NCBI GenBank assembly: GCA_963682105.1
Contig: OY821638.1
Location: forward strand, 570,801 to 634,800
DNA length: 64,000 bases
DNA from: Smithellaceae bacterium
GTDB taxonomy: Bacteria > Desulfobacterota > Syntrophia > Syntrophales > Smithellaceae
Direction: 5' to 3'
A model generated the notes under the pieces. That model had not been told where the DNA came from. It searched no databases and saw only the letters and a program-made list of their open reading frames with translations. Shown here piece after piece: positions 16,867 to 61,365 of the stretch (within the stretch, counting starts at the first letter, position 1; each line of letters starts with the position of its first letter). A program made the translations under genes and the position numbers.

Positions 16867-16893
16867 AATTCCGTTTCCGGCTCAACAGGAACA

Positions 16894-23363: not shown

Positions 23364-24557
23364 TTACTTCTTAATCACATAATCAACCGCTGCTTCGACA
23401 CGGCGGTTCTTTGCCTTTCCGGCCTTTGTTGCATTGTCAGCAACAGGTTTTTCCAGGCCGAATCCCTCAGCCGTAATGCGATTAGCGTCAATGCCTTTTT
23501 TAACCATGTATTTCTTTACGGCGTCAGCGCGCTTCTGGGACAGTTTCTTGTTGTATGCGGCGCTGCCCACATTGTCGGTATGACCTTCGATAACAACATT
23601 CAGGTCCGGATACTGTTTCATGACACCGACCAGATTGTCGACATCCTTGAAAGAGTTCTTTTTAATGATGTCTTTGTTGGTATCAAACAAGACTCTTAAG
23701 GTGGTTCTGCCCTTTTCGATAATTTCCGGAGCGGCGGCAGCCTTGGGTTTTATTTGCTGAACAACAGGCGGAGGACAACCATCTTTATCCACCTTCACAC
23801 CCTCCGGTGTGCCGGGGCATTTATCCAGATAATCAGGTACTCCGTCTTTGTCGGAATCCAGTGGGCAACCGTCTTTGTCAACGGCTACGCCGGCGGGGGT
23901 GCCGGGGCATTTATCCAGATCGTCTGTAACACCATCTTTATCGGAATCAAGCGGTTCGGGCTTCGCTACGGGTTCCGGAGCGGGAGCGGCGGCCACGGCG
24001 GGAGCGGGTTTTGCACCGCCGAATGCCAGGGTCAAACCAATCGTTGCCAGAAGATTATTGTGCATGCTGTCGAAAGGAATGACATGCCTGACATCAGCGC
24101 GAAGCGCCACGTTATCCGAAAGGAAATATTTGAAACCGGCGCCGTAATCGGCCGTTATCTTATTGCTTTTGTTTTCCGTCGTTAATTCATATGTTGCCGT
24201 ATAATGAATGCCGCCTACACCGACTGCCACAAAAGGAACAAAAGCGCCGTTGGGCAGAATATGGAAGATTCCTTCAATTCCATAACCGTAAGTGTTGATC
24301 TCCTGTGTCTGTTCCTGGTCATTACGGATTTTGGTGGGCATCCAGAGGCCGTAACCTTCAACACCGATGTATTTTGTAAAATTATAACCGGCCCGTAAAC
24401 CCAGGACTATCGCGTTGTCCATGTTCTCGTTGCCTTCAAACTTATACATTCCAACGGTAGGGGTAATATTGACCGACCCGGCGTTAATTTGTGCGTACGC
24501 GGTCGCTACTGTCAACGTCAGCATAAGCATCGTTATAAACACAATTGCTTTTTTCAT
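23364..24557 (-). CDS. OmpA-family outer membrane protein with thrombospondin type-3-like Ca-binding repeats
   Basis: 397 aa. It has a signal peptide (ATAYA), an N-terminal beta-barrel region, two repeats of DSDKDGVxDxLDKCPGTPxGVxVDKDGCP, and a C-terminal OmpA peptidoglycan-binding domain (GHTDNVGSAAYNKKLSQKRA). Confidence 0.87.
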   Translation of the reverse strand: MKKAIVFITMLMLTLTVATAYAQINAGSVNITPTVGMYKFEGNENMDNAIVLGLRAGYNFTKYIGVEGYGLWMPTKIRNDQEQTQEINTYGYGIEGIFHILPNGAFVPFVAVGVGGIHYTATYELTTENKSNKITADYGAGFKYFLSDNVALRADVRHVIPFDSMHNNLLATIGLTLAFGGAKPAPAVAAAPAPEPVAKPEPLDSDKDGVTDDLDKCPGTPAGVAVDKDGCPLDSDKDGVPDYLDKCPGTPEGVKVDKDGCPPPVVQQIKPKAAAAPEIIEKGRTTLRVLFDTNKDIIKKNSFKDVDNLVGVMKQYPDLNVVIEGHTDNVGSAAYNKKLSQKRADAVKKYMVKKGIDANRITAEGFGLEKPVADNATKAGKAKNRRVEAAVDYVIKK

Positions 24558-29350: not shown

Positions 29351-31651
29351 ATGAGCTTTCAGTTTAAACCTGATTCCCTGAACTCCAGCATGGACGAAAG
29401 GCTGAGGATTCGGAAAAATCTTCAGGAAATAACGAACCGCATCCATGCAGCTCAGAACATTGCTCATATTCTTGTTGAAATAAAAGACGGAATTCTCAAT
29501 CTTTTCAACGCTTCTTCCATTACCATCTATGTCGTCGACAAACATCACGATGAAATCTATTCGATGTTTCTGGCCGGCACGCAAATCAAGGAAATTCGCG
29601 TCCCGATAAGCAGCCAGAGTATCGCCGGTTATGTCGCCAATACCTACAATATCGTAAATATCGGAGATGCTTACAACCAGGCTGAACTCAAAGCCATCGA
29701 TTTCGAACTGACCTTCGACTCGAGTTGGGATAAAAAATCAGGATTCCGAACCAGACAAATTCTTGCGGCGCCAATCTTTTATGAAGATCAACTCATGGGC
29801 GTCATACAGATTCTGAACAAAAAATTCGGCGAAGGCAAATTTTCCGAAGACGAAGTCGGCCTGGCCATGGAAATTGCCGAAGTGTTAGGCGTTGCTTTTT
29901 ATAACCAGCAGCGTTTTTCTCGCCGCCGTAAAACCCGCTTCGATTTTCTGATCACCCGCGGTCTGATCAAAGAAGAAGAAATGGAAGCGGCCTGGGATGA
30001 GGCCAGGGAGCAAAAAGAGTCCATCGAACATTTTTTAATGCGTAAGCATCGAATTTCCAAGGATGACATCGGCCATTCCTTTGAAGAATTCTATCGCTGC
30101 CGCTTTATTGAATACAATGAAAAAGCGGTCATTCCCGGCGATTTAATAAAAAATTTACGAAAAGACTACCTTCGCCGGGAAGTTTGGGTCCCATTGGAAA
30201 AAATTGATAATTATATCCATGTTATTGTTGATGATCCCAACAATATCCTGAAAAGAGACGCCATCGAGAACCTGCTGAAAACAAAAAAAGTAAAATACGA
30301 CATCGCTCTGACGGATGATATTCAGAAATTTATCAATCTCTTTTTCCAAACGGGAGACACTGAAAGCTCTTTCACTGATCTACTGGGAAAACTTGACGAT
30401 GAAGACAGGCCTGCCGATGACGAGGAAGGAACAGAGGACGTCACCGAATCCGACAGCGTGATCATGCAGCTTGTCAATAAAATCATCAATGACGCTTACG
30501 CCCGCCGGGCTTCCGATATCCACATTGAACCGAATGTCGGAAAGAAAAACGTGGAAATCCGCTTCCGTGTCGACGGTGATTGCGCTGTTTATCAGACAGT
30601 GCCTTATAGTTACAAAGCCGCCATGATTTCGCGCATTAAAATCATGTCGAACCTGGACATCACCGTTAAAAGACTGCCGCAGGACGGCAAGATCAAATTC
30701 CGACGGGCTTCAGGCGATGAGATTGAGCTTCGTGTGGCGTCAATTCCCACCCAGGGCGGCGTTGAAGACGTCGTCATGCGTATTCTGGCCAAAGGTGAAA
30801 CCATGCCCCTGGAAGACATGGGCCTTTCAAAACGCAATTATAACGAACTCACCAAGACCATTACCAAACCGTACGGTATGATTCTGGTTGTGGGCCCGAC
30901 CGGTTCCGGTAAAACGACCACTCTGCATGCGGCGCTGCATCACATCAATCGTCCGGACCGGAAGATCTGGACCGCCGAAGACCCTGTGGAAATCACTCAG
31001 TATGGTTTGCGCCAGGTGCAGGTTCAGCCTAAAATCGGTTTTGATTTTGCGGCGGCCATGCGATCCTTTTTGCGCGCCGATCCGGACGTCATCATGGTCG
31101 GTGAAATGCGTGACTTTGAAACCGCTAAAACAGGTGTAGAAGCTTCTTTGACCGGCCATCTGGTCTTCAGCACCCTGCATACCAACAGCGCCCCGGAAAC
31201 CATCGTGCGCCTTCTGGATATGGGCATCGATCCTCTTAACTTCGCCGATGCATTGCTGGCCATCCTGGCTCAGCGTCTGGTTCGCACTCTTTGCAAAACC
31301 TGCAAGGAACAGTATCATCCGACCAAAGAAGAATACGATGAAATCGCGGAGAGCTACGGTGCGGAAGAATTTGCAAAACTTGGCATTCCCTATAATGACG
31401 ACTTCAAATTACATCGCCCCAAGGGATGTGATATTTGCGATAAAACCGGCTATAAAGGCAGAATGGGCATTCACGAGCTGCTGGTGGCATCGGACAATAT
31501 CAAAAGACTCATTCAGAAACATGAAGCCGTTGAGGGCCTCAGAAACCAGTCCATGTCGGAAGGCATGACCACGCTTCTCCAGGACGGTATACACAAATCC
31601 CTCGCCGGATTTACCGATTTTACGCAGGTTCGCAGAGTCTGCATCAAATAA
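29351..31651 (+). CDS. GAF domain + T2SSE_N domain + GspE/PilB-family secretion-type ATPase (catalytic motifs intact)
   Basis: 766 aa. GAF-like region at about aa 30-185 and a GspE N-terminal-type domain at about aa 195-335, then an acidic linker. Motifs present: Walker A GPTGSGKTT (30893-30919), Asp box TAEDPVE, Walker B DPDVIMVGEMRD, His box TGHLVFSTLHTN, and tetracysteine CKTC...CDIC. Confidence 0.87.
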   Translation: MSFQFKPDSLNSSMDERLRIRKNLQEITNRIHAAQNIAHILVEIKDGILNLFNASSITIYVVDKHHDEIYSMFLAGTQIKEIRVPISSQSIAGYVANTYNIVNIGDAYNQAELKAIDFELTFDSSWDKKSGFRTRQILAAPIFYEDQLMGVIQILNKKFGEGKFSEDEVGLAMEIAEVLGVAFYNQQRFSRRRKTRFDFLITRGLIKEEEMEAAWDEAREQKESIEHFLMRKHRISKDDIGHSFEEFYRCRFIEYNEKAVIPGDLIKNLRKDYLRREVWVPLEKIDNYIHVIVDDPNNILKRDAIENLLKTKKVKYDIALTDDIQKFINLFFQTGDTESSFTDLLGKLDDEDRPADDEEGTEDVTESDSVIMQLVNKIINDAYARRASDIHIEPNVGKKNVEIRFRVDGDCAVYQTVPYSYKAAMISRIKIMSNLDITVKRLPQDGKIKFRRASGDEIELRVASIPTQGGVEDVVMRILAKGETMPLEDMGLSKRNYNELTKTITKPYGMILVVGPTGSGKTTTLHAALHHINRPDRKIWTAEDPVEITQYGLRQVQVQPKIGFDFAAAMRSFLRADPDVIMVGEMRDFETAKTGVEASLTGHLVFSTLHTNSAPETIVRLLDMGIDPLNFADALLAILAQRLVRTLCKTCKEQYHPTKEEYDEIAESYGAEEFAKLGIPYNDDFKLHRPKGCDICDKTGYKGRMGIHELLVASDNIKRLIQKHEAVEGLRNQSMSEGMTTLLQDGIHKSLAGFTDFTQVRRVCIK

Positions 31652-31890
31652 TCCGCTGTCTTTTCATTTCAAATTACGTCATCGATGTTCATTGTATCTT
31701 TCTCTCGTTTGATCTTCCGCCTGAAAGATCAAACGCTGTTATCTTCTTTACATTTTGTTCAATGCTTTAAACGTTTCATTGAAAGAAAAGAGAGAAAAAG
31801 TCTTCCTTCTCACAGCACAGCATCAAGACCAACCATTATTTCCAATAACAATTCATATGCTTACAAATATCTTTTCAAGATATTCATTTC

Positions 31891-31906
31891 TGGCACGCTC
31901 TTTTCA
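31891..31906 (+). promoter_or_regulatory. Sigma-54-like promoter (TGGCAC-N5-TTTCA), copy 1
   Basis: TGGCACgctctTTTCA has one mismatch to TGGCAC-N5-TTGCA, at the -12 G. It is identical in the second repeat copy, and a conserved 47-bp block lies about 120 bp upstream. Confidence 0.5.
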
Positions 31907-31979
31907 TTAGTATAAAGGCAAATAACACGGCCATGAGGCCTTAAAAAATAAAGCAATTACCCTGAGGAGGTAACAGATC

Positions 31980-32255
31980 ATGAAAAAGACATTAGGAACC
32001 ATCGTAACGGCAGCGGCAGTGATTCTTTTAACGGCAACCTTCGGATTCGCGGAATACGCGGCGGCGGGCGCTTCCGCTTTCCCGTATTTTCAACTGGGAT
32101 GCCTGATTGTGGGCGGCCTGATCCTGGTCAGCCTGAAGAGAAAATTCAATAAAATGTACACGGCCGAAGTGGTCGGCGCTTTCGCACTCTACACGGTTTT
32201 GATGGCGCTCTTCACCAACCCCGTGATCGAAGTTGTCAAGAACATCGTAAGCTGA
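31980..32255 (+). CDS. Small membrane protein, 91 aa (signal peptide + 2 TM), unknown function, copy 1
   Basis: GAGGAGG RBS upstream. MKKTLGTIVTAAAVILLTATFGFA is signal-like. The protein is 100% identical to the product of 38977-39252, with only 2 synonymous nucleotide differences. Confidence 0.65.
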   Translation: MKKTLGTIVTAAAVILLTATFGFAEYAAAGASAFPYFQLGCLIVGGLILVSLKRKFNKMYTAEVVGAFALYTVLMALFTNPVIEVVKNIVS

Positions 32256-32307
32256 ACGGACGTTTCTTTAAAGACGCAGACAGACTTCTCGAAAGGAGGA
32301 CAGGACC

Positions 32308-32547
32308 ATGATCGCAACACATAAAATACAACCCAAGCAGTACCAAACCTTTAACGGGATACTGATGATGTCGGCCTGGAGCTTCGCCATGGTGATTGCA
32401 TCCTTTCTGTTCCTCTGGATCGGATACAAGCTCGACCAGTTCCTGGGCACCGGACCGAATTTCATGATCGGATTATTCATGCTGGCCATCTTCATCTGCG
32501 TGATGAGAATTTATCAGGAAGCGAAAAGACGAATGAAGGAACTTTAA
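32308..32547 (+). CDS. AtpZ/AtpI-family-like small membrane protein, 79 aa, copy 1
   Basis: AGGAGG RBS upstream. Two TM helices joined by a GYKLDQFLGTGPNFMI loop resemble the putative F0F1-ATPase-associated AtpZ family. There are 6 nucleotide differences from copy 2, 5 of them synonymous. Confidence 0.6.
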   Translation: MIATHKIQPKQYQTFNGILMMSAWSFAMVIASFLFLWIGYKLDQFLGTGPNFMIGLFMLAIFICVMRIYQEAKRRMKEL

Positions 32548-32578
32548 CCGCCGCACAGAAAACATGATCTGGAAAATA

Positions 32579-32618
32579 CCCCCCCTCAGGCGGCACCATG
32601 CTTGAGGGGGGATTTTTA
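32579..32618 (+). terminator. Rho-independent terminator of repeat copy 1
   Basis: Stem CCCCCCCTCA / TGAGGGGGG followed by ATTTTT. Confidence 0.7.
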
Positions 32619-32740
32619 TCAGATGTTACCATTTCAGTAAAAAAGAATACGCGCAACCTTTATGGCTTCTGTAACATTAAATTTCAAGAATAAAGGTTTG
32701 TTTCCCTTTCAAGCCGGGGGAAATTCGGTTGAAATTATTT

Positions 32741-34300
32741 TCACGACGGATAGCCCGTGATTTTTGCAATTCTTCGATAAATGGCATCCAGCGCGCCCGA
32801 GGATTTCTTATAAACATCGTTGAACAGGTTCGTATAGATCCGGTAGTGTTTTTGATCGGGCTGAAATGTTTTTCCTTTGCGCACCATCAACGCTACGGCA
32901 TCTTCTATTGAAGCATGCATTCCCGTACCCACGGCGGCATCGATGGCTGCGCCCAGAGCCGAAATTTCTGACGTTTCCATGCGCGACACAGGTAAATTAA
33001 ACATGTCGGCGGCAATCTGCACAACAACATCGCTTCGCGATCCGCCGCCGCCCACGCGGATTTCTTTAATGGGTATCCCCGTTTTTTTCTGGACGATCTC
33101 CTGCATGCGGCGCAGTTCAAAACACAACCCTTCAAATATCGCTCTGTAAATATGAGCCCGGGTATGAATGTCGCCAAACCCGATGATCGCCCCCTTGGCA
33201 TATTTGTTGTTCACCATCGGCGACCAGTACGGTTGCAGCATAAGGCCCATGGAACCTGGAGGTATGTCACGAATCACTTCATCCAACACAACCTCAGGGG
33301 CAACTCCGCGTTTTTCCGCTTCAATGGCTTCCCGGTGGCCAAATTCCTGTTTAAACCAGGTGACCATCCAGAACCCCCGGCTGATAAACATTTCTATATC
33401 CCATGCGTTGGGAACGGCCGCAGGCCATGTAAAAAAACGCAGTTGCGAATCACTGATATATTTGCGCGTGATGACTTCCATGGCCGTACCCGTTCCAAAA
33501 CTGATCACAGCTACGGAGGGATCAATGGCGCCGGCGCCGAGCAATTCACATTGTTTATCGCCGGCTCCCACCACAACGGGCAGTCCCTTCGGCAGTCCCG
33601 TTTCACGGGAAGCTTCTTCCGTAATACGGCCCAGGATTTTATCAGGAGAATAAAGCTCGACACAATGCTCGGGTCTGATGCCAAATGCGTCATATATAAA
33701 CCCGAATATCCCGCCGTACCAGTTCAAAGCCTTATAATCGAACGGCCAGATGCCCGCCATCATCCCGTAGGAATCGTGAAATTCTCCCGTAAGCTTCCGG
33801 ACAAAAAATCCGGAAGCCTGAACAAATTTGTGAGTCTTACGATATATTTCCGGTTCGTGCTTTTTGATCCAGAGAAATTTTGAATGCTTCTGCGAATAAC
33901 GGATTGCTTCATTGAGACCAATGAGATTTGTAACAAGAGTGATGGCTTTGTTCAGAGGCGGAACATCGTCTACAGTGCGTTGATCGAGCCATATGATCCC
34001 CGGTCGCAATGGCTTGCCATCCTTATCCATCGGAATGATGGTGCTGCGCTGACTGGTCAGACCGATGCCTGCAATTTCCCGCCGTTCAATATCAATCTTT
34101 GACATCAACCTGCGGCATACAATGCAAAGCTTGCTCCAGTAGTCTTCCGTATTCTGTTCAGCCCAGCCCGGCTGCAGAGAAAAATACGGCTCGTAATCCG
34201 CCTGTTCGATGGCGAGCACGGTTCCGCTACGGTCGAAAAGCACGGCTCGAACGCTCTGCGTGCCGGAGTCTATGGCAATGATATACTTTTTATCGTTCAC
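32741..34300 (-). CDS. FGGY-family carbohydrate/polyol kinase
   Basis: 519 aa. N-terminal YIIAIDSGTQSVRAVLFD and C-terminal GGGSRSD motifs match the glycerol/xylulose kinase superfamily. Confidence 0.85.
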   Translation of the reverse strand: MNDKKYIIAIDSGTQSVRAVLFDRSGTVLAIEQADYEPYFSLQPGWAEQNTEDYWSKLCIVCRRLMSKIDIERREIAGIGLTSQRSTIIPMDKDGKPLRPGIIWLDQRTVDDVPPLNKAITLVTNLIGLNEAIRYSQKHSKFLWIKKHEPEIYRKTHKFVQASGFFVRKLTGEFHDSYGMMAGIWPFDYKALNWYGGIFGFIYDAFGIRPEHCVELYSPDKILGRITEEASRETGLPKGLPVVVGAGDKQCELLGAGAIDPSVAVISFGTGTAMEVITRKYISDSQLRFFTWPAAVPNAWDIEMFISRGFWMVTWFKQEFGHREAIEAEKRGVAPEVVLDEVIRDIPPGSMGLMLQPYWSPMVNNKYAKGAIIGFGDIHTRAHIYRAIFEGLCFELRRMQEIVQKKTGIPIKEIRVGGGGSRSDVVVQIAADMFNLPVSRMETSEISALGAAIDAAVGTGMHASIEDAVALMVRKGKTFQPDQKHYRIYTNLFNDVYKKSSGALDAIYRRIAKITGYPS

Positions 34301-34437
34301 CTGCCTTCTCCAAATCTTTGCGTAAAATTAACCACAAGGGCTTCAGGACGTTTTGAATCCGGAGCGCATGAATTAACATACTAATGCGTGGTGACTTATT
34401 GATTCATGTCCGGCGGGTCGGACTTTCATCCGTCTTT

Positions 34438-36141
34438 CTACCTGCGAGTTGGAATCTCATCCAGCCCAAGCTGGCCACCCGGATTCATGATGCCGTGCGG
34501 ATCGAAGTGGCATTTTAAAGCCCTCAGTACCGCCATCTGTTCCGGTCCCAGGTGTTTTTCCATCCATGGCGCAAGCAAACGCCCCACTCCGTGATGATGG
34601 CTCAGGGTCCCGCCGTATTTCAAAATGTTGTCAATCACATCTTTCTGGAACGAGACGTATTCGCCCAGATCCATGCGGGCCAGAAAGATAAAATAAAGAT
34701 TGGCACCCTGCGGATAGAAATGAGAGGCATGCGTCATGCAGACGGTTCCCGGCCGCTGTTTAACGAATGCCCGGACTCCCTGGTGCACCCGATGGATGTT
34801 GTCCCACGTCACCGACGCTTCCAGAGTGTCGGTAAATATCCCGAAGTCATTCAGATCCTCGCGCATGTACGGCTCCGTATATCGGGTTTGCTCCCACTTG
34901 CGCGCCGCATAACCGGTCAGCGACATCGCACCATGTTCGCGTGCGATTTTTTTGATTCTCTTCGCAACAAGGCTTGCATAATCCCCATCCCCCTCAACAT
35001 TGCCCAGGCTGAGACATCGTTCCATGGGCCTGAAGCCCCGTCGCCTCAGAAATGCATCAACAAAGCCCGGCACGCCGTACAGTTTCAGTCCTCTTTCCGT
35101 CTCCTCCGGGTCTGAAATACGATAGATAGCGGGCAGGCCGAATTCACCCTGCATGATTTCACGGCTTGCATTCACCGCCGCCTCCCAGTTCGGATACATA
35201 AATCCGAATCGTCTTGTGTTTTCCGGCATATGCCGGAAAATCCTCATCGTCACTTCGACCAGAATGCCAAAAACGCCTTCCGACCCTTTCATAATATCGT
35301 TGACTTTGGGTCCCGTAGCCGCAGCCGGATATTCAAGCGTTTTGAAAGTTCCGACCGGCGTGACGTATTCCTGACTGAAAACGATATCGCTGGCATCGCC
35401 ATAATAAGTGGATGCCTGTCCCGAACCCAGGGTCAGAACCCAGCCGCCGACTGTTGAATATTCGAATGATTGAGGGAAATGACCGCATGTATAGCGGCGC
35501 TTGCAACCAAAGAGTTCCGGAGCACGGTTGAGCGCATCTTCATAAGCGGGTCCGAACATGCCCGGTTGGACTCTTGCGGTCTGGTTGAGCTCATTTATCT
35601 CCAGAAGCTTGTTCATATGCGTGCTCATGACCAGCGTCACACCGCCTTTATAAGGCCGGCAGCCAAAGTTGACCGAAGATCCTCCGCTGAAAACGGTAAC
35701 GGGAATTTTTTCCTTGTTGCAATAATTCACCACCCTCTGCAGATCCCGCTTGTCACGGGGATGAAGGACTATGTCGCATACTTCGCGGATGATGCCCTTT
35801 CGCAGCTCCAGGATTTCCTCCGACGTTTTTGCGGATGAGTATTTCACACGGGAATAGTCATCAAGGGCCGAGTTTTCTTCGCCCACCATTGCGGTAAGCG
35901 CCGCGATCTGTTCCATTTTGAGAGTTGAGGGGCGGCTGAGAACAACCTTCTCGTTGCCTTCAGATTGTTTCTGCGAAAAATCGGCTTCAGACATGCCGAA
36001 TTCTTCCTGCATCATTTTGACCCAGGCATCGCTGGGGTGTTTAAACCGGTCAGGGTTGCCATACTTGACAATGGAACGATATGTTCCGGGCGCCGGAGCC
36101 TGATGCGACCAGTTTGGCCGGAAACTTCTTGATTTCGGCAT
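34438..36141 (-). CDS. FAD-linked oxidase, alkyl-dihydroxyacetonephosphate synthase (AGPS)-like
   Basis: 567 aa with an FAD_binding_4 region (PVTVFSGGSSVNFG), then HFPQSFEYSTVGGWVLTLGSGQASTYYG, which resembles the AGPS signature. The C-terminus is an FAD-oxidase domain (SHHHGVG). Confidence 0.78.
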   Translation of the reverse strand: MPKSRSFRPNWSHQAPAPGTYRSIVKYGNPDRFKHPSDAWVKMMQEEFGMSEADFSQKQSEGNEKVVLSRPSTLKMEQIAALTAMVGEENSALDDYSRVKYSSAKTSEEILELRKGIIREVCDIVLHPRDKRDLQRVVNYCNKEKIPVTVFSGGSSVNFGCRPYKGGVTLVMSTHMNKLLEINELNQTARVQPGMFGPAYEDALNRAPELFGCKRRYTCGHFPQSFEYSTVGGWVLTLGSGQASTYYGDASDIVFSQEYVTPVGTFKTLEYPAAATGPKVNDIMKGSEGVFGILVEVTMRIFRHMPENTRRFGFMYPNWEAAVNASREIMQGEFGLPAIYRISDPEETERGLKLYGVPGFVDAFLRRRGFRPMERCLSLGNVEGDGDYASLVAKRIKKIAREHGAMSLTGYAARKWEQTRYTEPYMREDLNDFGIFTDTLEASVTWDNIHRVHQGVRAFVKQRPGTVCMTHASHFYPQGANLYFIFLARMDLGEYVSFQKDVIDNILKYGGTLSHHHGVGRLLAPWMEKHLGPEQMAVLRALKCHFDPHGIMNPGGQLGLDEIPTRR

Positions 36142-36177
36142 TTGCGATTCCCCTCGTTTTTTGTCTTCGATTTTTTC

Positions 36178-37824
36178 TCACTGCACCGGGATCTTTAACA
36201 GATCGTTTGTCTGCCCGATTTCTTTCTCCATTCTTTCACGGCTCCATCCCAACATGTCAGCAAGCTTTGCGGCCACCTTTCTCAATACGCCTTCACCGGG
36301 ATTTCCCAACGTGCCGATGCCCGTCCTGCGCATGATGACGTCCGGCAATGTGCGCGCCATTTCAAAGCGTACGGCGTAGACCACTTGCGCCATGATCTCT
36401 CCGTCGTCGTTCAACCGTTCGGCGAGCGTTCGATCCTGAAGCGCCAGTTTCAGAATATCTTTGTATTCAGTCCCGTAATTGCGTGCAAGATATTCCAGTG
36501 TGGACGGGCTGAACCCGTCGTTATACCTGCTCGCTTCAAGCAGAAAAGATTTCATGTCCTTTATCTCACAGCCACAGAGGTAATGTTTCTTTGTAATGCT
36601 TTTGCCGGGCTTGCGTCCCATTTTTTTCTCAATCAGCGTCACACAAGTCTCGGCAAGATTGCGGCTGGTTGTGTATTTTCCTCCTTCCACGGTCAGAAGG
36701 CCGTCCAGTCCATCAGTTGCATTGTCGTAGATCTCGTACTTACGTGAACAGGTGTAAGTTTCTTCAGTCTGTTCTTCCAGAAGGGGCCGGAGCCCGCCGT
36801 AGGTATGCTTTACATCCGAGTAATTCAGGGTTCCATCGCCGAATGACGCATTGATGTCGGCGATCAGTTCCAGAATGCTCTGCTTTGTAACCCTGTATTC
36901 GTCCGGATCACCTGTATACGGCTTATCCGTGGTCCCGATGAGGGTATGCCTGCGCCAGGGAATGAGAAAAAAATGCCTGCCGGTCGAAGTCATGGATCCA
37001 ACCACATAGTGACCGGATATCAACTTTTTGTCCGTGATGATATGAATGCCTTCCGATCTTCTCAATGCGCCGCATGCATTGACCGTTGATTCGGTCATCC
37101 CCAGAATAATATCCGCCCAGGGCCCGCCGCAGTTGACCGTTATTTTGGCGTCTATAGTACCGTTTTTCCCCGAAAGCAGATCTTTGACCGTTACCCCCTT
37201 AACCTTGTTTCGGCCGTCGATATTAAATCCTTCCACTTTCGTATAGTTTGCTACTTTTGCTCCATGAGACACAGCGGATTTGATAAATGCAAGCGTCAGT
37301 CTTTCGGGGAAAATACTGAGACAATCATAATAAATCGATCCCCCGGTTAGCCCCAGGGACCTGACATTCGGCTCGCATGCCAGAACATCCTCTCTCGATA
37401 TCGTCCGGTGCGAAGGAATTTTCTTGCTTTTGTCCCATGTCCGGTTCTTGTCATAGGACAATGCGTCATACATCAGCATGCCCATTTTGACCGCCCACTT
37501 GTTATTCTTTAACGGAGTCCCCGTGTGCATAATCAAAATCGGCTGCGGGTAAACATAATTCGGGGCAATGTTTTCCAGAATGCGGCGCTCTCTGAGCGAT
37601 TCGCGAACGAGCCCGATTTCTCCGTTGGCGAGATAACGCAGTCCGCCGTGAATGAGCTTGGACGTTACGGCGGATGTCGCCCAGGAAAAATCCCGCTTTT
37701 CCACCAGCGCCACTTTCAATCCGCGGGATGCCGCTTCATAGGCTGTCGAAACTCCGGTGATACCACCGCCAATGACAAGAACATCGAAATGTTCGCCCGC
37801 GTACTGCTCGATAAAACGCTGCAT
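36178..37824 (-). CDS. FAD-dependent glycerol-3-phosphate dehydrogenase/oxidase family protein (GlpD-like)
   Basis: 548 aa with the N-terminal dinucleotide fold DVLVIGGGITGVSTAYEAASRG, a GGKYTTSR motif and a C-terminal helical extension. Confidence 0.85.
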   Translation of the reverse strand: MQRFIEQYAGEHFDVLVIGGGITGVSTAYEAASRGLKVALVEKRDFSWATSAVTSKLIHGGLRYLANGEIGLVRESLRERRILENIAPNYVYPQPILIMHTGTPLKNNKWAVKMGMLMYDALSYDKNRTWDKSKKIPSHRTISREDVLACEPNVRSLGLTGGSIYYDCLSIFPERLTLAFIKSAVSHGAKVANYTKVEGFNIDGRNKVKGVTVKDLLSGKNGTIDAKITVNCGGPWADIILGMTESTVNACGALRRSEGIHIITDKKLISGHYVVGSMTSTGRHFFLIPWRRHTLIGTTDKPYTGDPDEYRVTKQSILELIADINASFGDGTLNYSDVKHTYGGLRPLLEEQTEETYTCSRKYEIYDNATDGLDGLLTVEGGKYTTSRNLAETCVTLIEKKMGRKPGKSITKKHYLCGCEIKDMKSFLLEASRYNDGFSPSTLEYLARNYGTEYKDILKLALQDRTLAERLNDDGEIMAQVVYAVRFEMARTLPDVIMRRTGIGTLGNPGEGVLRKVAAKLADMLGWSRERMEKEIGQTNDLLKIPVQ

Positions 37825-37832
37825 AACGGCCT

Positions 37833-38543
37833 CTATTTCTTTCTTTTGGCCAGATCTTTTTTTACCGCCTCTTCTGCGTAATTAAGCACATCCAGCATAA
37901 TCCGCCGTGCGACTTCAGGTTTTTTACGTTTTATGGCATCGAGAATATCCCGGTGGAATTTTCTTGACCGATCGAGATTCCGTTCATCTTCAAAATAAAG
38001 GTAACTGTATTCCTGGTTAAAATGATTAAAGAAATTAAGCATAATGATGTAAACGATATTGCCGCCGGCATGAGCAATGACCTCATGAACCTTCATGTCT
38101 TTTTCCGGCCAGTTCAGACGCTTATCCGCAATCACCTGCTCCAGCCGTGAAATGTCATCGGAAGATGCTCTCTGAGCCGCCAGATAAGCCATTTCCGGCA
38201 CAATGATCCGTCGAACTTCGAGAATATCGCAGATGGATTTACCGCCCTCTTCAATCCTGCAGGCCGTTTTGATAAGGTCGAAATTGCTGCTTTCAAGATA
38301 ATTCTTTACATATAAACCGTCGCCGTGGCGCACATCAATCAATTCCAGGTGTTCCAGTTTCCTCAATGCCTCCCGAACCGTGGTCCGATTGACCTTGAAC
38401 GATTCTGCAAGATCCCGTTCGGTGGGCAGTTTGCCGCCGGGCGCAATACTTCCGGACAAAATCTGTCTTTGAATGATGTCTACTATTTCTTCGCTGAGAC
38501 GCGATCGGGTTACTGACTGGGCAAATACGACGGTGGCAGGCAT
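37833..38543 (-). CDS. GntR-family (FadR/FCD subfamily) transcriptional regulator
   Basis: Start at MPATVVF, preceded by AAGGAG. It has a winged HTH (KLPTERDLAESFKVNRTTVREALRKLE) followed by an FCD-like helical domain. The track ORF extends to 38558. Confidence 0.82.
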   Translation of the reverse strand: MPATVVFAQSVTRSRLSEEIVDIIQRQILSGSIAPGGKLPTERDLAESFKVNRTTVREALRKLEHLELIDVRHGDGLYVKNYLESSNFDLIKTACRIEEGGKSICDILEVRRIIVPEMAYLAAQRASSDDISRLEQVIADKRLNWPEKDMKVHEVIAHAGGNIVYIIMLNFFNHFNQEYSYLYFEDERNLDRSRKFHRDILDAIKRKKPEVARRIMLDVLNYAEEAVKKDLAKRKK

Positions 38544-38572
38544 GTTGTTCTCCTTCATGCGTATTGCAAATT

Positions 38573-38603: not shown

Positions 38604-38887
38604 ATTCCTTTTTTGAACATTTGTCAAGGGGGGGGGATTGGAATCGAATCGAAACAACATGAATGCATTTGACGAGAATTTAAGATGAAAGAAAACCAAA
38701 TAGGATCCCCGCCTGTTCAACACCTTTTTTATTTTTATGAATTTTCACATTTCGTTTAATGCTTAAACGTTTCATTGAAAGAAAAGAGAGAATAAGACAT
38801 TCCCGCGGTTTGCCCCACACTGTCATTAATCGTTATTTGTATCGTTATATCTTATATTTACAACTATCTTCCAAACGTCTGCATTTC

Positions 38888-38903
38888 TGGCACGCTCTTT
38901 TCA
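38888..38903 (+). promoter_or_regulatory. Sigma-54-like promoter (TGGCAC-N5-TTTCA), copy 2
   Basis: Identical to the 31891-31906 element. Confidence 0.5.
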
Positions 38904-38976
38904 TTAGTATAAAGGCAAATAACACGGCCATGAGGCCCTAAAAAATAAAACAATTACCCCGAGGAGGTAACAGATC

Positions 38977-39252
38977 ATGAAAAAGACATTAGGAACCATC
39001 GTAACGGCAGCGGCAGTGATTCTTTTAACGGCAACCTTCGGATTCGCGGAATACGCGGCGGCGGGCGCTTCCGCTTTCCCGTATTTTCAACTGGGATGCC
39101 TGATTGTGGGCGGCCTGATCCTGGTCAGCCTGAAGAGAAAATTCAATAAAATGTACACGGCCGAAGTGGTCGGCGCTTTCGCTCTCTACACGGTTTTGAT
39201 GGCGCTCTTCACCAACCCCGTGATCGAAGTTGTCAAAAACATCGTAAGCTGA
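38977..39252 (+). CDS. Small membrane protein, 91 aa, copy 2
   Basis: Protein identical to the product of 31980-32255. Confidence 0.65.
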   Translation: MKKTLGTIVTAAAVILLTATFGFAEYAAAGASAFPYFQLGCLIVGGLILVSLKRKFNKMYTAEVVGAFALYTVLMALFTNPVIEVVKNIVS

Positions 39253-39304
39253 ACGGACGTTTCTTTAAAGACGCAGACAAACTTCTCGAAAGGAGGACAG
39301 GACC

Positions 39305-39544
39305 ATGATCGCAACACATATAATACAACCCAAGCAGTACCAAACCTTTAACGGGATACTGATGATGTCGGCCTGGAGCTTCGCCATGGTGATTGCTTCG
39401 TTCCTGTTCCTCTGGATCGGATACAAGCTCGACCAATTCCTGGGCACCGGACCGAATTTCATGATCGGATTGTTCATGCTGGCCATCTTCATCTGCGTGA
39501 TGAGAATTTATCAGGAAGCGAAAAGACGAATGAAGGAACTTTAA
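39305..39544 (+). CDS. AtpZ/AtpI-family-like small membrane protein, 79 aa, copy 2
   Basis: One amino-acid difference (K6I) from the product of 32308-32547. Confidence 0.6.
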   Translation: MIATHIIQPKQYQTFNGILMMSAWSFAMVIASFLFLWIGYKLDQFLGTGPNFMIGLFMLAIFICVMRIYQEAKRRMKEL

Positions 39545-39574
39545 CCGCCGCACAGCAAACATGATCTGGAAAAT

Positions 39575-39615
39575 CCCCCCCCTCAAGCGTCACCATGTTT
39601 GAGGGGGGTTTCTTG
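39575..39615 (+). terminator. Rho-independent terminator of repeat copy 2
   Basis: Stem CCCCCCCCTCAA / TTGAGGGGGG followed by a T-rich tract. It abuts the stop of the convergent DUF218 gene. Confidence 0.65.
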
Positions 39616-39620
39616 TTTTA

Positions 39621-40217
39621 TCAAGCCCAGAGCGAATAAAGCATAAACCAGGATATCTTCAAATATTCACGCCAGACTTTTTTCCAGTCGGTCGGCTTTA
39701 ACTGCCATATATTCCGAGGAGCCGCTTCGTAAGGAGTCGGCGAGAAATAATGTTTTCCGTCAATGCCGAATACTCTGGTCACAATCATTTGAATGCGGCG
39801 CATATGATAGGGGGAGCTTACAAAGATTGCCGTTTTTTTCCCGTAAAGATCCATGGTCTTTTTAGCATCCAGCAATTCCAGATGGGTGTCTTCAAAGTAA
39901 TAAGGAGCATAAGAGTTGTTTTTCCTGTAAATGTTGTTGGGGTCCGTTTTATTTTGCAGGTTTTTGATGACGCCCTGATCGATAAAATAAATTTTATGGT
40001 AAGCAGGGATAATAAGATAATCCGATAGCCCCATTTGCATCAGGTCCTGAGCATGGCGGTGGCGGGCGCTAAAATCGGGACCCAGCAAAAGAACAATCGC
40101 ATCCGATTTTTCACATGGCGTTTTATAAAGCAAAAATCCGGGCGCGGCAAATACTCCGACTGCAATAATAAGAACCGGAACAATCAGAATCCGCGCGATT
40201 TTTTTAATAATCTTCAC
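39621..40217 (-). CDS. YdcF/DUF218 (ElyC-like) family protein
   Basis: 198 aa with an N-terminal TM anchor. The IVLLLG and FVSSPYHMRR motifs are typical of DUF218. Confidence 0.7.
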   Translation of the reverse strand: MKIIKKIARILIVPVLIIAVGVFAAPGFLLYKTPCEKSDAIVLLLGPDFSARHRHAQDLMQMGLSDYLIIPAYHKIYFIDQGVIKNLQNKTDPNNIYRKNNSYAPYYFEDTHLELLDAKKTMDLYGKKTAIFVSSPYHMRRIQMIVTRVFGIDGKHYFSPTPYEAAPRNIWQLKPTDWKKVWREYLKISWFMLYSLWA

Positions 40218-40431: not shown

Positions 40432-41508
40432 ATGTATGATGCCACAACAGAAAGACGCCGCAATTCCGATCACGATAAAAGCATGGATATTTCGCTTTAT
40501 AAAAGCATTATGGAAACGATTGATCTGGGCATTGTCATTCTCGGCATTAAAAGAAGAGACCTCATCTTCAAGAACCGGTTTGCTTCCGAAATTTTCCAGC
40601 ACAATCCGAATCTTCTGGAATACCGAAATCTTCTGTCCTTGCTGTTGACGGACTATGGCAGCAAGCCTGAAGAAGAAATTTTTGGGAAAAATTACACACT
40701 CCGCTTTAAAAATCGTCTTCTGGGCTACACGCCATACATGATTTCCGAAAGCTTCATCATGATTATCATCCGCGACATTACGGAAAGAAGTCGTCTGGAA
40801 TCCATCGCGGAAGCCGTAAATTCAATGGATAACATCGGTTATGTTTTCTCCGGCATCCGGCACGAACTGGGCAATCCCATCAATTCCATAAAAATGACGT
40901 TGAGCGTGCTTAAACGAAACTTAAGCGAATATTCTCCGGCCGCCGTTGAAAAATTTGTCGACCGCGCTATGACGGAAATTTCGCGTGTTGAATTCCTGCT
41001 TCAGGCGCTGAAAAGCTTCAGCATCTTCGAAAATCCGGAAATTCAAACCGTTCAGATCGATGATTTTCTGACGCGTTTCATCGCCCTGATCAGCAATGAC
41101 TTACAGCAGTCCGGGATAAAGATCGGTAAAACGGTTGAATCAAACGTCAAGACCGTCAGTGCTGATCCCCGCCTGCTGCATCAGGTGATGATGAATCTGA
41201 TCACCAACGCCTCAGACGCTCTTACCGGTAAGGAAAACAGAAAGATCAACATCCGGGCGCTCAAACACGACGGTTTAGTCGCCATCGTTGTTGATGACAA
41301 CGGATGTGGAATGTCCAAAGAGGCTCAGGCCAACCTGTTTAAACCTTTTTTCACAACAAAGAATCGGGGAACAGGCCTGGGATTGATGATCACCCTGAAG
41401 ATGGTGACGCTCATGAAGGGCAACATGGAAATTAAAAGCATCAAAGACAAGGGAACGCGAGTAGCCGTCATTTTGCCCCTGGGAGCCAGGCCCAATGCTA
41501 AAAGTTAA
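40432..41508 (+). CDS. Cytoplasmic sensor histidine kinase (PAS-like + HisKA + HATPase_c)
   Basis: H box FSGIRHELGNPIN, N box MMNLITNASDA, G1 DDNGCGM and G2 GTGLGL are present, with no TM helices. The start is uncertain (alternative Met at 40483). Confidence 0.82.
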   Translation: MYDATTERRRNSDHDKSMDISLYKSIMETIDLGIVILGIKRRDLIFKNRFASEIFQHNPNLLEYRNLLSLLLTDYGSKPEEEIFGKNYTLRFKNRLLGYTPYMISESFIMIIIRDITERSRLESIAEAVNSMDNIGYVFSGIRHELGNPINSIKMTLSVLKRNLSEYSPAAVEKFVDRAMTEISRVEFLLQALKSFSIFENPEIQTVQIDDFLTRFIALISNDLQQSGIKIGKTVESNVKTVSADPRLLHQVMMNLITNASDALTGKENRKINIRALKHDGLVAIVVDDNGCGMSKEAQANLFKPFFTTKNRGTGLGLMITLKMVTLMKGNMEIKSIKDKGTRVAVILPLGARPNAKS

Positions 41509-42844
41509 AAGAAAAATTCTGATTATCGACGACAATGACATTTTTTGCGAATCCGTCAAAGACCTGCTTACTGATCAAAACACGGACATCCTAACCGCCA
41601 ACACGGGTAAAGACGGCCTGCAACTGTGCACTGAAAACAAAATTGACGTTGTTATTCTGGACCAGAAGCTTCCCGACACACAGGGTGTGACGTTGTGTCC
41701 TTCCATCCTGAAACAAAACGAACAGACCAAAATCATTTTTGTCACCGCTTACCCGAGCTTCGCCAATGCCATAGACGCCATCAAAGTCGGGGCGCACGAT
41801 TATCTTTCCAAACCTTTCGAAATGGCGGAACTGGAATTGACCATCAAGCAGGCTTTCCGCACGCAGGAACTGGAAAAAACCGAGCAGATTCAGAATTACC
41901 AGAATATCCGGGAAAGCGAGGAGAATGATCTGATAGCCGGCGAAGGCGCATTTGATGAGATCAAACGCATGATTAATCTGGCGGCTGACAGCGATGCGCC
42001 TGTTCTCATTACCGGAGAAACCGGAACAGGCAAGAACGTTGTGGCGCGTGCCATTCACTATAAAAGCTCGCTTCCGGCCAGGCTTTTCCTGACAGCCAAT
42101 TGCGCCGCCTTTCCGGAAAACCTCATCGAGGCGGAATTGTTCGGATCGGAAAAGGGAGCCTTCACCGGCGCCAGCGCGACCCGCAAAGGCATATTCGAAC
42201 TGGCTGAGGGAGGAACGCTGTTACTCGATGAAATCGGCTCAATGCCCATTCATCTGCAGTCCAAGCTTTTAGGCGTCCTGGAAGAAAAAAAAATCCGGCG
42301 CATCGGCAGTGAAACCGTTAAACCCATCAATGTTCGTGTCATTGCCGCGGCCAATAACGACCTGGAAGAAGCCACTAAGGACAAAACATTTCGAAACGAT
42401 CTCTATTACCGCCTCAGCGTGATTCGCATTCATCTCCCGCCGTTGCGCGAAAGAAAAGAAGACATCCCCAAACTGTGCGAATATTTCATAGCAAAAATGT
42501 CCCGCGATGTGAATGTTCACCTCTCCGATGCGGAGGTGTCCCGGCTTATGGACTATGAGTGGCCCGGAAACGTCCGTGAATTGAAAAACGTCATTGAGCG
42601 TTCGCTGATCATTCAGCGAGGTCAACCTCTTCGACCTTCCCTGCTTTTGCGAACCGGCGTCACGCCTGCGGCAAACGCTTCCGCCGGACAGGACGATGAT
42701 GAAATCGTACCTCTTGAAGACACGGAAAAAAAATGCATCAGCCAGGCTCTGAAAAAATATAACGGCAACTACTCCCAATCCGCCAGGGCGCTGGGTATTT
42801 CCCTTTCCACACTCAAAAGAAAAGTAAAATCCTATCATCTTTAA
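41495..42844 (+). CDS. Sigma-54-dependent response regulator (NtrC family: REC + AAA+ + Fis-type HTH)
   Basis: 449 aa. REC domain (ILIIDDN, VVILDQKLPD), Walker A GETGTGKN, sigma-54 contact loop GAFTGA, Walker B LLLDEIG, and a C-terminal HTH SQSARALGISLSTLKRK. It overlaps the kinase gene by 14 nt. Confidence 0.92.
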   Translation: MLKVKRKILIIDDNDIFCESVKDLLTDQNTDILTANTGKDGLQLCTENKIDVVILDQKLPDTQGVTLCPSILKQNEQTKIIFVTAYPSFANAIDAIKVGAHDYLSKPFEMAELELTIKQAFRTQELEKTEQIQNYQNIRESEENDLIAGEGAFDEIKRMINLAADSDAPVLITGETGTGKNVVARAIHYKSSLPARLFLTANCAAFPENLIEAELFGSEKGAFTGASATRKGIFELAEGGTLLLDEIGSMPIHLQSKLLGVLEEKKIRRIGSETVKPINVRVIAAANNDLEEATKDKTFRNDLYYRLSVIRIHLPPLRERKEDIPKLCEYFIAKMSRDVNVHLSDAEVSRLMDYEWPGNVRELKNVIERSLIIQRGQPLRPSLLLRTGVTPAANASAGQDDDEIVPLEDTEKKCISQALKKYNGNYSQSARALGISLSTLKRKVKSYHL

Positions 42845-42994: not shown

Positions 42995-43089
42995 TGGTTG
43001 TCTTAGAATCGTCTATTCATTAAGACTTAAGCGATTTGGGGATTTCCTTAAAAAAGACTGAAGTTCTAAAAGAAGATAAGTTGAATGAG

Positions 43090-43542
43090 ATGGCACAGGA
43101 AAAAAACGATGTATTAACAACCGAAACCGTGAAAAGCCCGAAATACCATCGAAAAGATTCTGGTATTCTGGAAGTTTTAATTGTCGATGATGAAGAAACG
43201 CTTCTTTTAAGTATAGACGACGGTTTAAGCATTTATAAGCAATATTTCACACTCCTGACGGCCACAAACGGCGTTGATGCAGTGAATCTGCTGAAATCAA
43301 AAATGTCGATTGACCTGGTCATTACAGATCTTAAGATGCCCAGAATGGATGGTTTTGAACTTCTAACGTACATACAAAGAAACTTTCCCCATATTCCCGT
43401 TATTCTCATGACGGCTTACGGTACGCCTAAAATTGAGGAAATTGTCAAAACGATGGGGATTTACGGTTACCTGGAAAAACCACTGGACATCAATACGATT
43501 GCAGAAACTATTTTTGAGGCATTGAAGATAAAAATTCATTGA
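43090..43542 (+). CDS. Single-domain response regulator (receiver only)
   Basis: Start at MAQEKND; the track ORF starts at TTG 43036. The receiver has the acidic pocket VDDEE, phospho-acceptor VITDLKMP, plus MTAYG and EKP, and there is no output domain. Confidence 0.8.
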   Translation: MAQEKNDVLTTETVKSPKYHRKDSGILEVLIVDDEETLLLSIDDGLSIYKQYFTLLTATNGVDAVNLLKSKMSIDLVITDLKMPRMDGFELLTYIQRNFPHIPVILMTAYGTPKIEEIVKTMGIYGYLEKPLDINTIAETIFEALKIKIH

Positions 43543-56288: not shown

Positions 56289-56807
56289 GGTGCACCATGT
56301 CGCTTGGGGCATAGGTCCAATAACTTCTTCTTTCGATAAGAAATAAATTGTTATCATTGTCGTATAAGCAAGACTTTAATTCGTAATAGCAAATTAACAC
56401 CCGATTGAATACATCGGCACGGTTCTCTGTATTTTGCAGCCGTAATGCCTGCGCCCATGATGCCTTGACATTGGCGATTAGCGTCACCATACTATTAACA
56501 CGAAACGAGATACTGCGATGTTCGTATTGAGTCTGTTCTACTGGATGTTAACAACAAGAGAATCATAGGGTCTTTGTGGTGATGATCACCCTTAATAGAC
56601 CGGATATTAAATGATAGACTCCAGTAAAAGACAACACGGCATAGGCGGATCTCGTTTTTTTATATGATAAAACAGGCAACATTCGGCAGGGAGATTGGAG
56701 CAGCGTTGTAACGAACATCATTGTTATTACATGTTCACTTCCATAATGCCCCGCCTTTCAATTACTAATCATCATCTCAAAGCCGACGCCCCCCCCACAA
56801 AAATATC

Positions 56808-56823
56808 CCTCAATATATTGAGG
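56808..56823. promoter_or_regulatory. Perfect 16-bp palindrome CCTCAATATATTGAGG (copy A), candidate enhancer-binding-protein site
   Basis: It is the core of a ~50-bp repeat that recurs at 61231-61280. It lies exactly 133 bp upstream of the sigma-54 element at 56941. Confidence 0.5.
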
Positions 56824-56940
56824 CTCCGCCGGATATGGAGGCCAGACGAATCATTTTAGTTTTTGGCGCTGTTCTCATCCATCGATCCAACAGCTCGTTA
56901 TCATGCATTAATTCGAATTTTCTCCTTCACCGTCGGTTCT

Positions 56941-56956
56941 TGGCAGACTCCTTGCT
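56941..56956 (+). promoter_or_regulatory. Sigma-54 promoter (TGGCAG-N5-TTGCT)
   Basis: TGGCAGactccTTGCT has canonical GG/GC spacing. It lies about 90 bp upstream of the first gene of the KaiC-like operon. Confidence 0.62.
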
Positions 56957-61204: not shown

Positions 61205-61232
61205 CCGCGCGATCGTTTCCCGCGAACGTGTC

Positions 61233-61248
61233 CCTCAATATATTGAGG
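61233..61248. promoter_or_regulatory. Perfect 16-bp palindrome CCTCAATATATTGAGG (copy B)
   Basis: Identical palindrome to copy A, again exactly 133 bp upstream of a sigma-54 element (61366). Confidence 0.5.
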
Positions 61249-61365
61249 CCCCGCTAAATATGGAGGTCAAATCAATGATTGCACGCTGCTTTATGACTCT
61301 CTGCCCCTCAACCTAAGATTATGTATTTAATACATTATTGTAACTATTTATTATTTTTTACTTGT

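Follow-up and report, generated by a model that had tools for sequence, protein, structure and literature searches.

A multi-copy Smithellaceae cassette for small membrane proteins with a sigma-54-type promoter and a predicted self-closing mRNA

In the enterobacterial psp regulon, pspG is a stand-alone sigma-54 gene for an inner-membrane protein thought to act in membrane homeostasis. The Vibrio qrr small-RNA genes are activated by LuxO and sigma-54. The 3' untranslated region (UTR) of the Staphylococcus aureus icaR mRNA pairs with the 5' translation-initiation region, and multi-copy operons such as amoCAB/pmoCAB, psbA, and tuf are kept uniform by gene conversion. AtpI assists c-ring assembly. 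AtpQ-type genes are found outside ATPase operons as well (PMC2881411). We analyzed a 64,000-nucleotide (nt) stretch of a Smithellaceae genome (contig OY821638.1, positions 570,801 to 634,800; hereafter the window), in which two nearly identical copies of a short gene cassette lie on the plus strand. Its core gene, g1, encodes a 91-amino acid (aa) predicted three-helix membrane protein that carries no annotation at present. The optional second gene, g2, encodes a 79-aa predicted two-helix hairpin of the PF09527 (AtpZ/AtpQ) type. The original prediction, made from the sequence of the window, saw a duplicated two-gene membrane module and speculated that its products are membrane partners of an adjacent secretion-type ATPase. 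On balance, we lean toward reading the cassette as a sigma-54-dependent, multi-copy mini-operon with a self-closing mRNA, from which a membrane protein and a helper are co-induced. We found nothing in the literature on the g1 family or on this combination of features.

The two cassette copies and their regulatory anatomy

Copy A spans 31750-32617 and copy B 38747-39614, at an offset of 6,997 nt. The open reading frames (ORFs) lie exactly where they were first noted, with g1 at 31980-32255 (A) and 38977-39252 (B) and g2 at 32308-32547 and 39305-39544, all on the plus strand. Position-by-position comparison gives the same tally as before, eight differences in 516 coding nt, seven synonymous and one not. 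The g1 proteins are identical, the two changes in the gene falling at codon 69 (GCA/GCT) and codon 87 (AAG/AAA). In g2, five changes are synonymous (A31 GCA/GCT, S32 TCC/TCG, F33 TTT/TTC, Q44 CAG/CAA, and L56 TTA/TTG) and K6I (AAA/ATA) is the sole non-synonymous one. With 115.8 synonymous and 394.2 non-synonymous sites, the binomial probability of at least seven synonymous changes out of eight under neutrality is 2e-4; the proportions of differing synonymous and non-synonymous sites, pS and pN, are 0.060 and 0.0025, a ratio of 0.04. Non-coding divergence in the repeated tract, 11/216 (5.1%), is close to pS. Across the family, dN/dS is 0.09 for g1 and 0.18 for g2 over thousands of pairs. These values bear out the claim of real plus-strand coding, and both genes are almost certainly under purifying selection. 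A 117-aa minus-strand ORF (39233-39586) runs antisense to g2 of copy B and through the ATG in the 3' box described below, its listed start being a TTG about 20 nt upstream of that ATG. The counterpart in copy A (32268-32656) is cut by a stop codon that arises from the synonymous L56 TTA/TTG difference, and the antisense ORF is therefore not a conserved gene.

The near-identical tract, 31886-32617 in copy A, is longer than the coding stretch first reported (31980-32547) and takes in promoter, leader, both genes, 3'UTR, and terminator. From promoter to terminator the copies are 97% identical. Upstream of 31886, similarity is confined to a 34-nt block (31750-31783 in A, 38747-38779 in B), an upstream activator site, and the spacers that separate this block from the promoter in A and in B are unrelated to each other. 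The promoter, at 31891-31906 in copy A and 38888-38903 in copy B (both plus strand), reads TGGCACG-N4-TTTCA in copy A, with a canonical -24 element and TC replacing GC in the -12 element. g1 is encoded at 372 places in GTDB species representatives. TGGCA[CT]G-N4-YYNCA is present with identical spacing in all 80 upstream regions compared, at 55-70 nt, occasionally about 125 nt, from the ATG. The canonical -12 form CCGCA occurs in L070, L072, and L073, the most divergent members, and TTGC is used at -12 by other sigma-54-like promoters in the window.

The plus-strand activator site consists in copy A of two direct half-sites, ACRTTTCRTTSAA, 21 nt apart from start to start, also readable as a palindrome GTTCAA-N-TTRAAC; in copy B the half-sites are 20 nt apart. 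The same arrangement, TTTCACATTTCGTTCAA-N-TTGAACATTTCATTGAAA, that is, two ACRTTTCRTTSAA half-sites 20-21 nt apart, is found at nearly all loci some 110-140 nt before the promoter. Of 77 distinct upstream regions, nearly all have the block conserved at about -110 to -150 relative to the promoter. In the window, half-site matches number 7 against 1.06 expected. A third half-site with one mismatch on the minus strand inside g1 (32145-32157 and 39142-39154, over codons K-F-N-K-M-Y) was set aside as chance, because the DNA is not conserved in other loci. Taken together, the conserved promoter and activator blocks make sigma-54 dependence of the cassette promoters likely.

Downstream of the promoter, the predicted 5' leader of copy A (31915-31979, plus strand) holds a window-specific hairpin (GGCCATGAGGCC, 31929-31940), an anti-Shine-Dalgarno (SD)/SD hairpin (TTACCCTGAGGAGGTAA, 31957-31973), and a translation-initiation box that spans the g1 start (ACAGATCATG, 31973-31982). 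Each cassette has a strong SD in a short leader, and at most loci the SD is partly held in a weak local hairpin. At the other end, a plus-strand 3' box, AACATGATCTGG at 32561-32572 in copy A and at 39558-39569 in copy B, precedes an intrinsic terminator on the same strand (32579-32617 and 39575-39614), which in copy A is a G+C-rich hairpin followed by a T run. The box, AACATGATCTGT in the family, is conserved in cassettes with and without g2 and stands 6-15 nt before the G+C-rich terminator, the stem of which covaries. We regard this anatomy as nearly certain. The start-codon box and the 3' box form an inverted repeat, and an invertible segment was considered and rejected: all 80 loci keep the promoter-to-g1 orientation, and the antisense ORF is not conserved.

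This layout resembles pspG in that a sigma-54 promoter drives the gene for a small membrane protein and is preceded by two activator sites, from which an A+T-rich region separates it. However, there is no sequence similarity to pspG, the cassette is multi-copy, its candidate activator has a receiver domain, and its mRNA is predicted to close 5' to 3'. The qrr genes provide a second likeness, as dispersed, near-identical short units with a sigma-54 promoter, activator sites, and a terminator that are switched by one NtrC-type regulator. Unlike qrr, the cassettes encode proteins under purifying selection.

Predicted closure of the mRNA

In reverse complement, the sequence of the 3' box is that of the g1 initiation region ACAGATCATG, start codon included. 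We folded eight full-length predicted transcripts by partition function, two of 700 nt with g1 and g2 from the window and six of about 400 nt with g1 only. In all eight, the helix between box and start region forms with a pairing probability of 0.93-1.00, and mutating the box in silico lowers AUG pairing to 0.1-0.5. The closing helix also appears in the minimum free energy and centroid structures and in the RNAalifold consensus of 17 transcripts. Its core of 8-9 base pairs is complementary in 26-30 of 30 distinct sequence combinations; several box variants retain pairing via G.U, and one fails. In the distant lineage of L085/L086, a 3'UTR GUCCUCC pairs with the SD, GGAGGAC, at a probability of about 1.0. 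This different sequence pair, which would give the same 5'-3' closure, is the best comparative support for the helix. An Rfam search of the region gave nothing significant. The folds suggest that the finished mRNA likely closes 5' to 3' and hides its AUG. Closure may repress translation, stabilize the message, or yield a 3'UTR-derived RNA that acts on all copies.

The nearest parallel is icaR, since here too a conserved element before the terminator is complementary to the SD/start region of its own mRNA, with a literal anti-SD in L085/L086. In the Smithellaceae folds, however, the predicted target is the AUG with the preceding 5-7 nt and not the SD, and the cassette element is common to all copies and could act in trans. 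The cassettes form a natural set of paired 5' and 3'UTRs, with two sequence solutions, for the study of translation control.

A start codon sequestered by the 3' end of its own mRNA also recalls the fold-back control of hok and raises the possibility that the cassettes are genes for membrane-damaging peptides, type I toxin-like or holin-like, which are silenced by RNA and multi-copy as hok, ldr, and ibs are. The products are small and hydrophobic, and the copies are multiple and dispersed. But g1, with 91 aa and three helices, is large for a type I toxin, its amino acids are strongly conserved at the dN/dS given above, and the promoter is of the enhancer-dependent sigma-54 type. Searches gave no significant PHROG match (only phrog_31055, E=0.025), no PADLOC match, and no matching plasmid or phage record, and the antisense ORF is broken in copy A. 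We therefore consider a toxin function highly improbable.

The cassette family, its sites, and gene conversion

Protein searches returned 1,797 close g1 clusters, at 79-97% identity among the matches listed, where the named clusters are all from Smithella, Smithellaceae, Syntrophaceae, or 'Deltaproteobacteria' metagenome-assembled genomes. Among 1.84 billion representatives searched exhaustively, only 56 g1 clusters appeared at 50% identity, many of them fragments. The top hits among clusters and genomic places all belong to Smithella, Smithellaceae, or Syntrophales. Several genomes supply at least four g1 places each among the best 80 of 372, and one complete chromosome of 4.78 Mb carries at least four, each with different neighbors. 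On these searches, the family is almost certainly restricted to Smithellaceae and related Syntrophales and is multi-copy in them. A 5.7-kb contig labeled Candidatus Moraniibacteriota (UBA11098, Candidate Phyla Radiation; L036) holds a typical Smithella-type g1 cassette with a masked run of N upstream, most likely as a binning error. Two A+T-rich contigs of 189 and 127 kb that IMG/VR classes as viral (L088 and L089) carry a g1 homolog, 56% identical, and a g2-like gene; the TGGCAC promoter was not found on them. These contigs are probably cellular, and they place the g1-g2 pair outside Smithellaceae as well. An origin of the cassette in a mobile element or phage was rejected, as no plasmid or phage record matched and the two IMG/VR hits were these large, AT-rich, cellular-looking contigs.

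The two genes do not form an obligate module. Among 79 distinct places with sufficient downstream sequence, g2 is present at 28 and absent at 51 (about 65%), whereas g1 is the core. Compared within one genome, the g2-less form lacks about 270 nt in a clean deletion that starts at the g2 SD and stops just short of the g2 stop codon, and L011 retains a frameshifted g2 remnant. Loss of g2 by deletion has happened repeatedly. In a deeper Syntrophales lineage, the same promoter and activator site stand before a canonical g1-g2 pair, and the two-gene form is therefore probably ancestral. In distant Syntrophales, a run of small genes (8001-10316 in L085, 8001-10363 in L086) ends in a canonical g1-g2 cassette. 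It includes a divergent 93-aa g1 paralog that has no sigma-54 promoter, a Lys/Ala-rich 96-aa secreted-looking protein, and a 148-aa protein. On a complete Smithellaceae chromosome, two cassettes (L001/L002, the L009/L006 places, at about 7790-7960) have an identical insert of about 170 nt that separates g1 from g2. It contains inverted repeats, GTAAAAAG...CTTTTTAC, and is missing from a third copy of that genome. The insert looks like a miniature mobile element.

Clustering of the flanking ORFs returned only orthologous synteny groups, and no neighbor family was shared across site types. In the largest group, the cassette is divergent from the Mla operon (16-18 genomes). The second, glyQ-glyS-GspE1-cassette-DUF218, comprises eight genomes including the window and is called here the type 1 site. 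The flanks of these two main site types are orthologous between genomes, at 70-93% identity. At two sites of one genome, g1 is 96% (L039/L040), 100% (L060/L065), 100% (L075/L067), or 99% (L077/L062) identical, whereas orthologous g1 genes of different genomes are 81-91% identical. Within-genome synonymous divergence is bimodal, 0-0.18 or 0.5-0.7. Because copies within a genome are more alike than orthologs that sit in orthologous flanks, gene conversion almost certainly homogenizes the cassettes at different sites of one genome, as judged by these sequence comparisons. The amoCAB/pmoCAB, psbA, and tuf genes show the same excess of similarity of paralogs within a genome over orthologs between species. 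The cassette differs from them in that its unit is only about 0.45-0.9 kb and includes its own regulatory DNA.

The window pair fits the conversion pattern, with 97% identity from promoter to terminator beside unrelated spacers. A plain, recent segmental duplication, too young for changes to have built up and with a synonymous excess that arose by chance, would be consistent with only eight coding differences, three of them in adjacent codons. However, the binomial probability, the family-wide dN/dS values, and the juxtaposition of unrelated activator-promoter spacers with a near-identical tract all count against it, as does the same within-genome uniformity at orthologous sites in other genomes. 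We find this explanation scarcely credible and attribute the low divergence to conversion among dispersed family members.

The DNA that precedes copy A corresponds to the upstream flank of the GspE1 site as found in other genomes, and the DNA that follows copy B, with DUF218, to the downstream flank of that site. In those genomes, a single cassette occupies the site. An insertion of 6,997 nt is thus present in the window, made up of one extra cassette and about 6.3 kb of other DNA. The two cassettes flank, as direct repeats, a minus-strand catabolic island (32741-38558) that consists of genes for an FGGY sugar kinase (32741-34300), an FAD-linked oxidase (34438-36141), a GlpD-like dehydrogenase (36178-37824), and a GntR/FCD regulator (37833-38558). 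Orthologous sites in other genomes do not have the island, it was not found next to a cassette elsewhere in this comparison, and its composition shows no foreign signature. Synteny suggests that a single ancestral cassette at the glyQS-GspE1/DUF218 site became the two of the window, and that recombination through cassette repeats would be the simplest route by which this sugar-alcohol/glycerol-type island came to lie between them. In a related assembly, a break falls 95 nt upstream of g1, as a repeat would be expected to cause.

Proteins, neighbors, and a possible function

The 79-aa protein is AtpZ-like, as first proposed. g2 scores 36.7 bits (copy A) and 36.8 bits (copy B) against PF09527, above the gathering score of 26.6 bits, over profile positions 2-53/54, and all 80 close g2 homologs have the domain. 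AlphaFold2 places helices at residues 9-46 and 51-78, with a mean predicted local distance difference test score (pLDDT) of 67. For g1, searches of Pfam, NCBIfam, PHROGs, PADLOC, and Protein Data Bank sequence profiles gave nothing significant, in agreement with the earlier remark that the 91-aa protein has no recognized family, and AlphaFold2 suggests three helices. The name 'FtsH-binding integral membrane protein' that JGI gives to some g1 homologs would imply a Bax1-I/YccA identity. We rejected this, as g1 scores 17.1 bits against PF01027, where the threshold is 34.1 bits, and aligns with no more than positions 6-93 of the 207 in the profile. g1 represents an undescribed family, and g2 is a new PF09527 member outside any ATPase operon. 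With a leader followed by a two-helix hairpin and a basic loop, g1 may also resemble conjugative pilins of the VirB2/TraA type.

AtpZ of Bacillus pseudofirmus OF4, or AtpQ, the 'gene 1' of N-ATPase operons, is like g2 in PF09527 membership, size, and two-helix hairpin. AtpQ/AtpR parallels g2/g1 in that a PF09527 protein has as its neighbor another small protein, for which three helices are predicted (PMC2881411). It is thus conceivable that g1 and g2 are a free-standing AtpZ/AtpI- or AtpQ/AtpR-like pair that acts away from the atp operon, on the ATP synthase through c-ring assembly or as a small Mg2+/Ca2+ channel. The PF09527 match of g2, the three predicted helices of g1, the occurrence of AtpQ outside N-ATPase operons, paired there with three-helix AtpR (PMC2881411), and the improved Mg2+ acquisition that AtpZ gives Bacillus pseudofirmus (PMC4453477) are all consistent with such a role. 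However, g1 is not AtpR or AtpI by sequence, with no Pfam match to AtpR (PF12966) or AtpI (PF03899) even at E<=1 and no NCBIfam match. It does not have the two intramembrane Arg residues of AtpR: K53-R54-K55 of g1 sit in a loop, and no intramembrane Arg is among its invariant residues. The gene order is reversed, and the cassette has a private sigma-54 promoter. The conserved, amplified gene is g1, whereas AtpZ-like g2 is the one lost and is dispensable in most copies, and restriction to one lineage is unlike a general ATP-synthase factor. The absence of an ATP synthase context also held up, as no atp genes are among the larger ORFs scanned in the window or near any cassette copy examined in other genomes. 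An ATP-synthase or channel role of the pair is therefore unlikely. About 14 kb from the AtpZ-like genes, on the minus strand (15604-18156), are genes for divalent-cation transport, an Nramp transporter and an MgtE-N/CBS/PRC-barrel protein.

Upstream of copy A, and contextual rather than a demonstrated part of the cassette, is the gene for the GAF-MshEN-T2SSE ATPase GspE1 (29351-31651, plus strand). A DUF218 gene (39621-40217, minus strand) is the conserved convergent neighbor downstream of copy B at the type 1 site. It is followed on the plus strand by genes for a cytoplasmic histidine kinase (40432-41508), an NtrC-type response regulator with the domain matches REC-Sigma54_activat (AAA+)-HTH_8 (41495-42844), a single-domain receiver protein (43036-43542), and a second MshEN-T2SSE ATPase of 866 aa that has no Pfam GAF match (43574-46174), the last two as context. 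In L046 and L077, the kinase, sigma-54 regulator, receiver, and second ATPase genes follow DUF218 as in the window.

The suggested partnership with a secretion-type ATPase can be weighed against this arrangement. g1 and g2 would be membrane partners, as platform or anchor, of the orphan GAF-MshEN-GspE ATPase, or g1 would be a non-canonical filament subunit that this ATPase handles, with the kinase/regulator pair PilS/PilR-like. One part of the proposal stands, in that glyQ-glyS-GspE1-g1 is kept in eight genomes, so that co-occurrence of GspE-like and small genes holds at one orthologous site. The second ATPase, kinase, and sigma-54 regulator are nearby in the window, L046, and L077; a cassette copy in another genome adjoins a PilT-like T2SSE gene and an MshEN-receiver gene; and the layout is like that of pilB...pilS-pilR-pilA in Geobacter, where pilA has a sigma-54 promoter. 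Co-occurrence is absent for most copies, however, as a GspE-family gene is missing within 6-10 kb at about 70 of the 79 distinct places. None of the other conserved sites has GspE, and the commonest of them adjoins the Mla operon. Synteny is also weak evidence of function among genomes with flanks 75-93% identical. The g1 N-terminus, MKKTLGTIVTAAAVILLTATFGFAEY, does not have the prepilin leader G/FTLIEL, no Pfam or NCBIfam match to GspF/PilC, GspL, or GspM domains was found in g1, and the cassette has its own promoter and terminator. We judge the ATPase partnership very unlikely. With GspE1 and the second ATPase, two MshEN (c-di-GMP-binding) ATPases are encoded within 17 kb; the window ORFs scanned include no genes for a pilus or secretion platform.

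Returning to the mini-operon account, we suggest that an NtrC-type activator, possibly the adjacent kinase/regulator pair, would fire all copies together and produce a large, dosage-amplified burst of the small inner-membrane protein g1, while 5'-3' closure would limit translation or stabilize the message. By analogy with AtpZ/AtpI-type proteins, g2 would be a helper in assembly or ion handling that is needed in smaller amounts, and we propose that most copies could therefore lose it. Our guess at the physiological role, made by analogy, is membrane or envelope homeostasis or ion handling rather than a secretion-ATPase partnership; neighbors at conserved sites include Mla and DUF218. That the kinase/regulator pair (40432-42844) activates the cassette promoters is likewise a guess.

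Several observations weigh against this account. The -12 element is mostly TTTCA or TTCCA, with TC or CC and not the canonical GC. Within Smithellaceae, both partners of the closing helix are nearly invariant, so that compensatory covariation is absent and only one-sided, G.U-preserving changes and a few breaks are seen; in the AT-rich relative L088, closure is weaker. Confidence in the protein models is low, with a pLDDT of 60 for g1 and 67 for g2. The N-terminal helix of g1 may be a cleaved signal peptide or a retained helix, since this hydrophobic segment and the motif TATFGFAEYAAAG are no less conserved than the remainder of the protein. Some genomes (L039/L040/L048 and L060/L065/L074) contribute g2-less copies only to the sample, which speaks against g2 as an essential helper, unless these genomes encode it at another place. 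The kinase/regulator pair adjoins the cassette only in the window, L046, L077, and L084 and is absent within 10 kb at the same site in L039/L060/L075, and assignment of the pair as the activator is therefore weak. The physiological role, finally, is an argument from analogy.

A bolder and distinctly unlikely version is that g1 is the building block of an unrecognized, abundant oligomeric membrane structure of syntrophic Smithellaceae. It would be supplied in bulk by dispersed cassettes under one sigma-54 activator, with g2 as a catalytic assembly chaperone and the shared 3'UTR element masking starts in cis or, as a small RNA, in trans.

Two further repeats were seen in the window. Elements at 56794-56855 and 61219-61280, 77% identical and with a palindrome CCCTCAATATATTGAGG, lie about 130 nt upstream of sigma-54-like promoters near 56941 and 61366 (TGGCAG-N5-TTGCT/TTGCA), one of which precedes KaiC-like and GGDEF-EAL genes while the other follows them. 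The arrangement suggests a further enhancer-dependent regulon that has an activator site of its own. Two tandem 90-nt units, 74% identical (23773-23952), inside a minus-strand OmpA/OprF-type gene (23364-24557), correspond to thrombospondin type 3 repeats.

The cassette offers a compact sigma-54 regulon with a clear activator motif. As dispersed 0.7-kb repeats, its copies break assemblies and can mediate rearrangements, for example the island capture in the window. Smithella and its relatives, which are almost uncultured, have a key part in methanogenic systems as syntrophic degraders of alkanes and fatty acids. A gene that is amplified, kept by conversion, enhancer-dependent, and self-masking, as g1 appears to be, likely matters for the membrane physiology of Smithellaceae.

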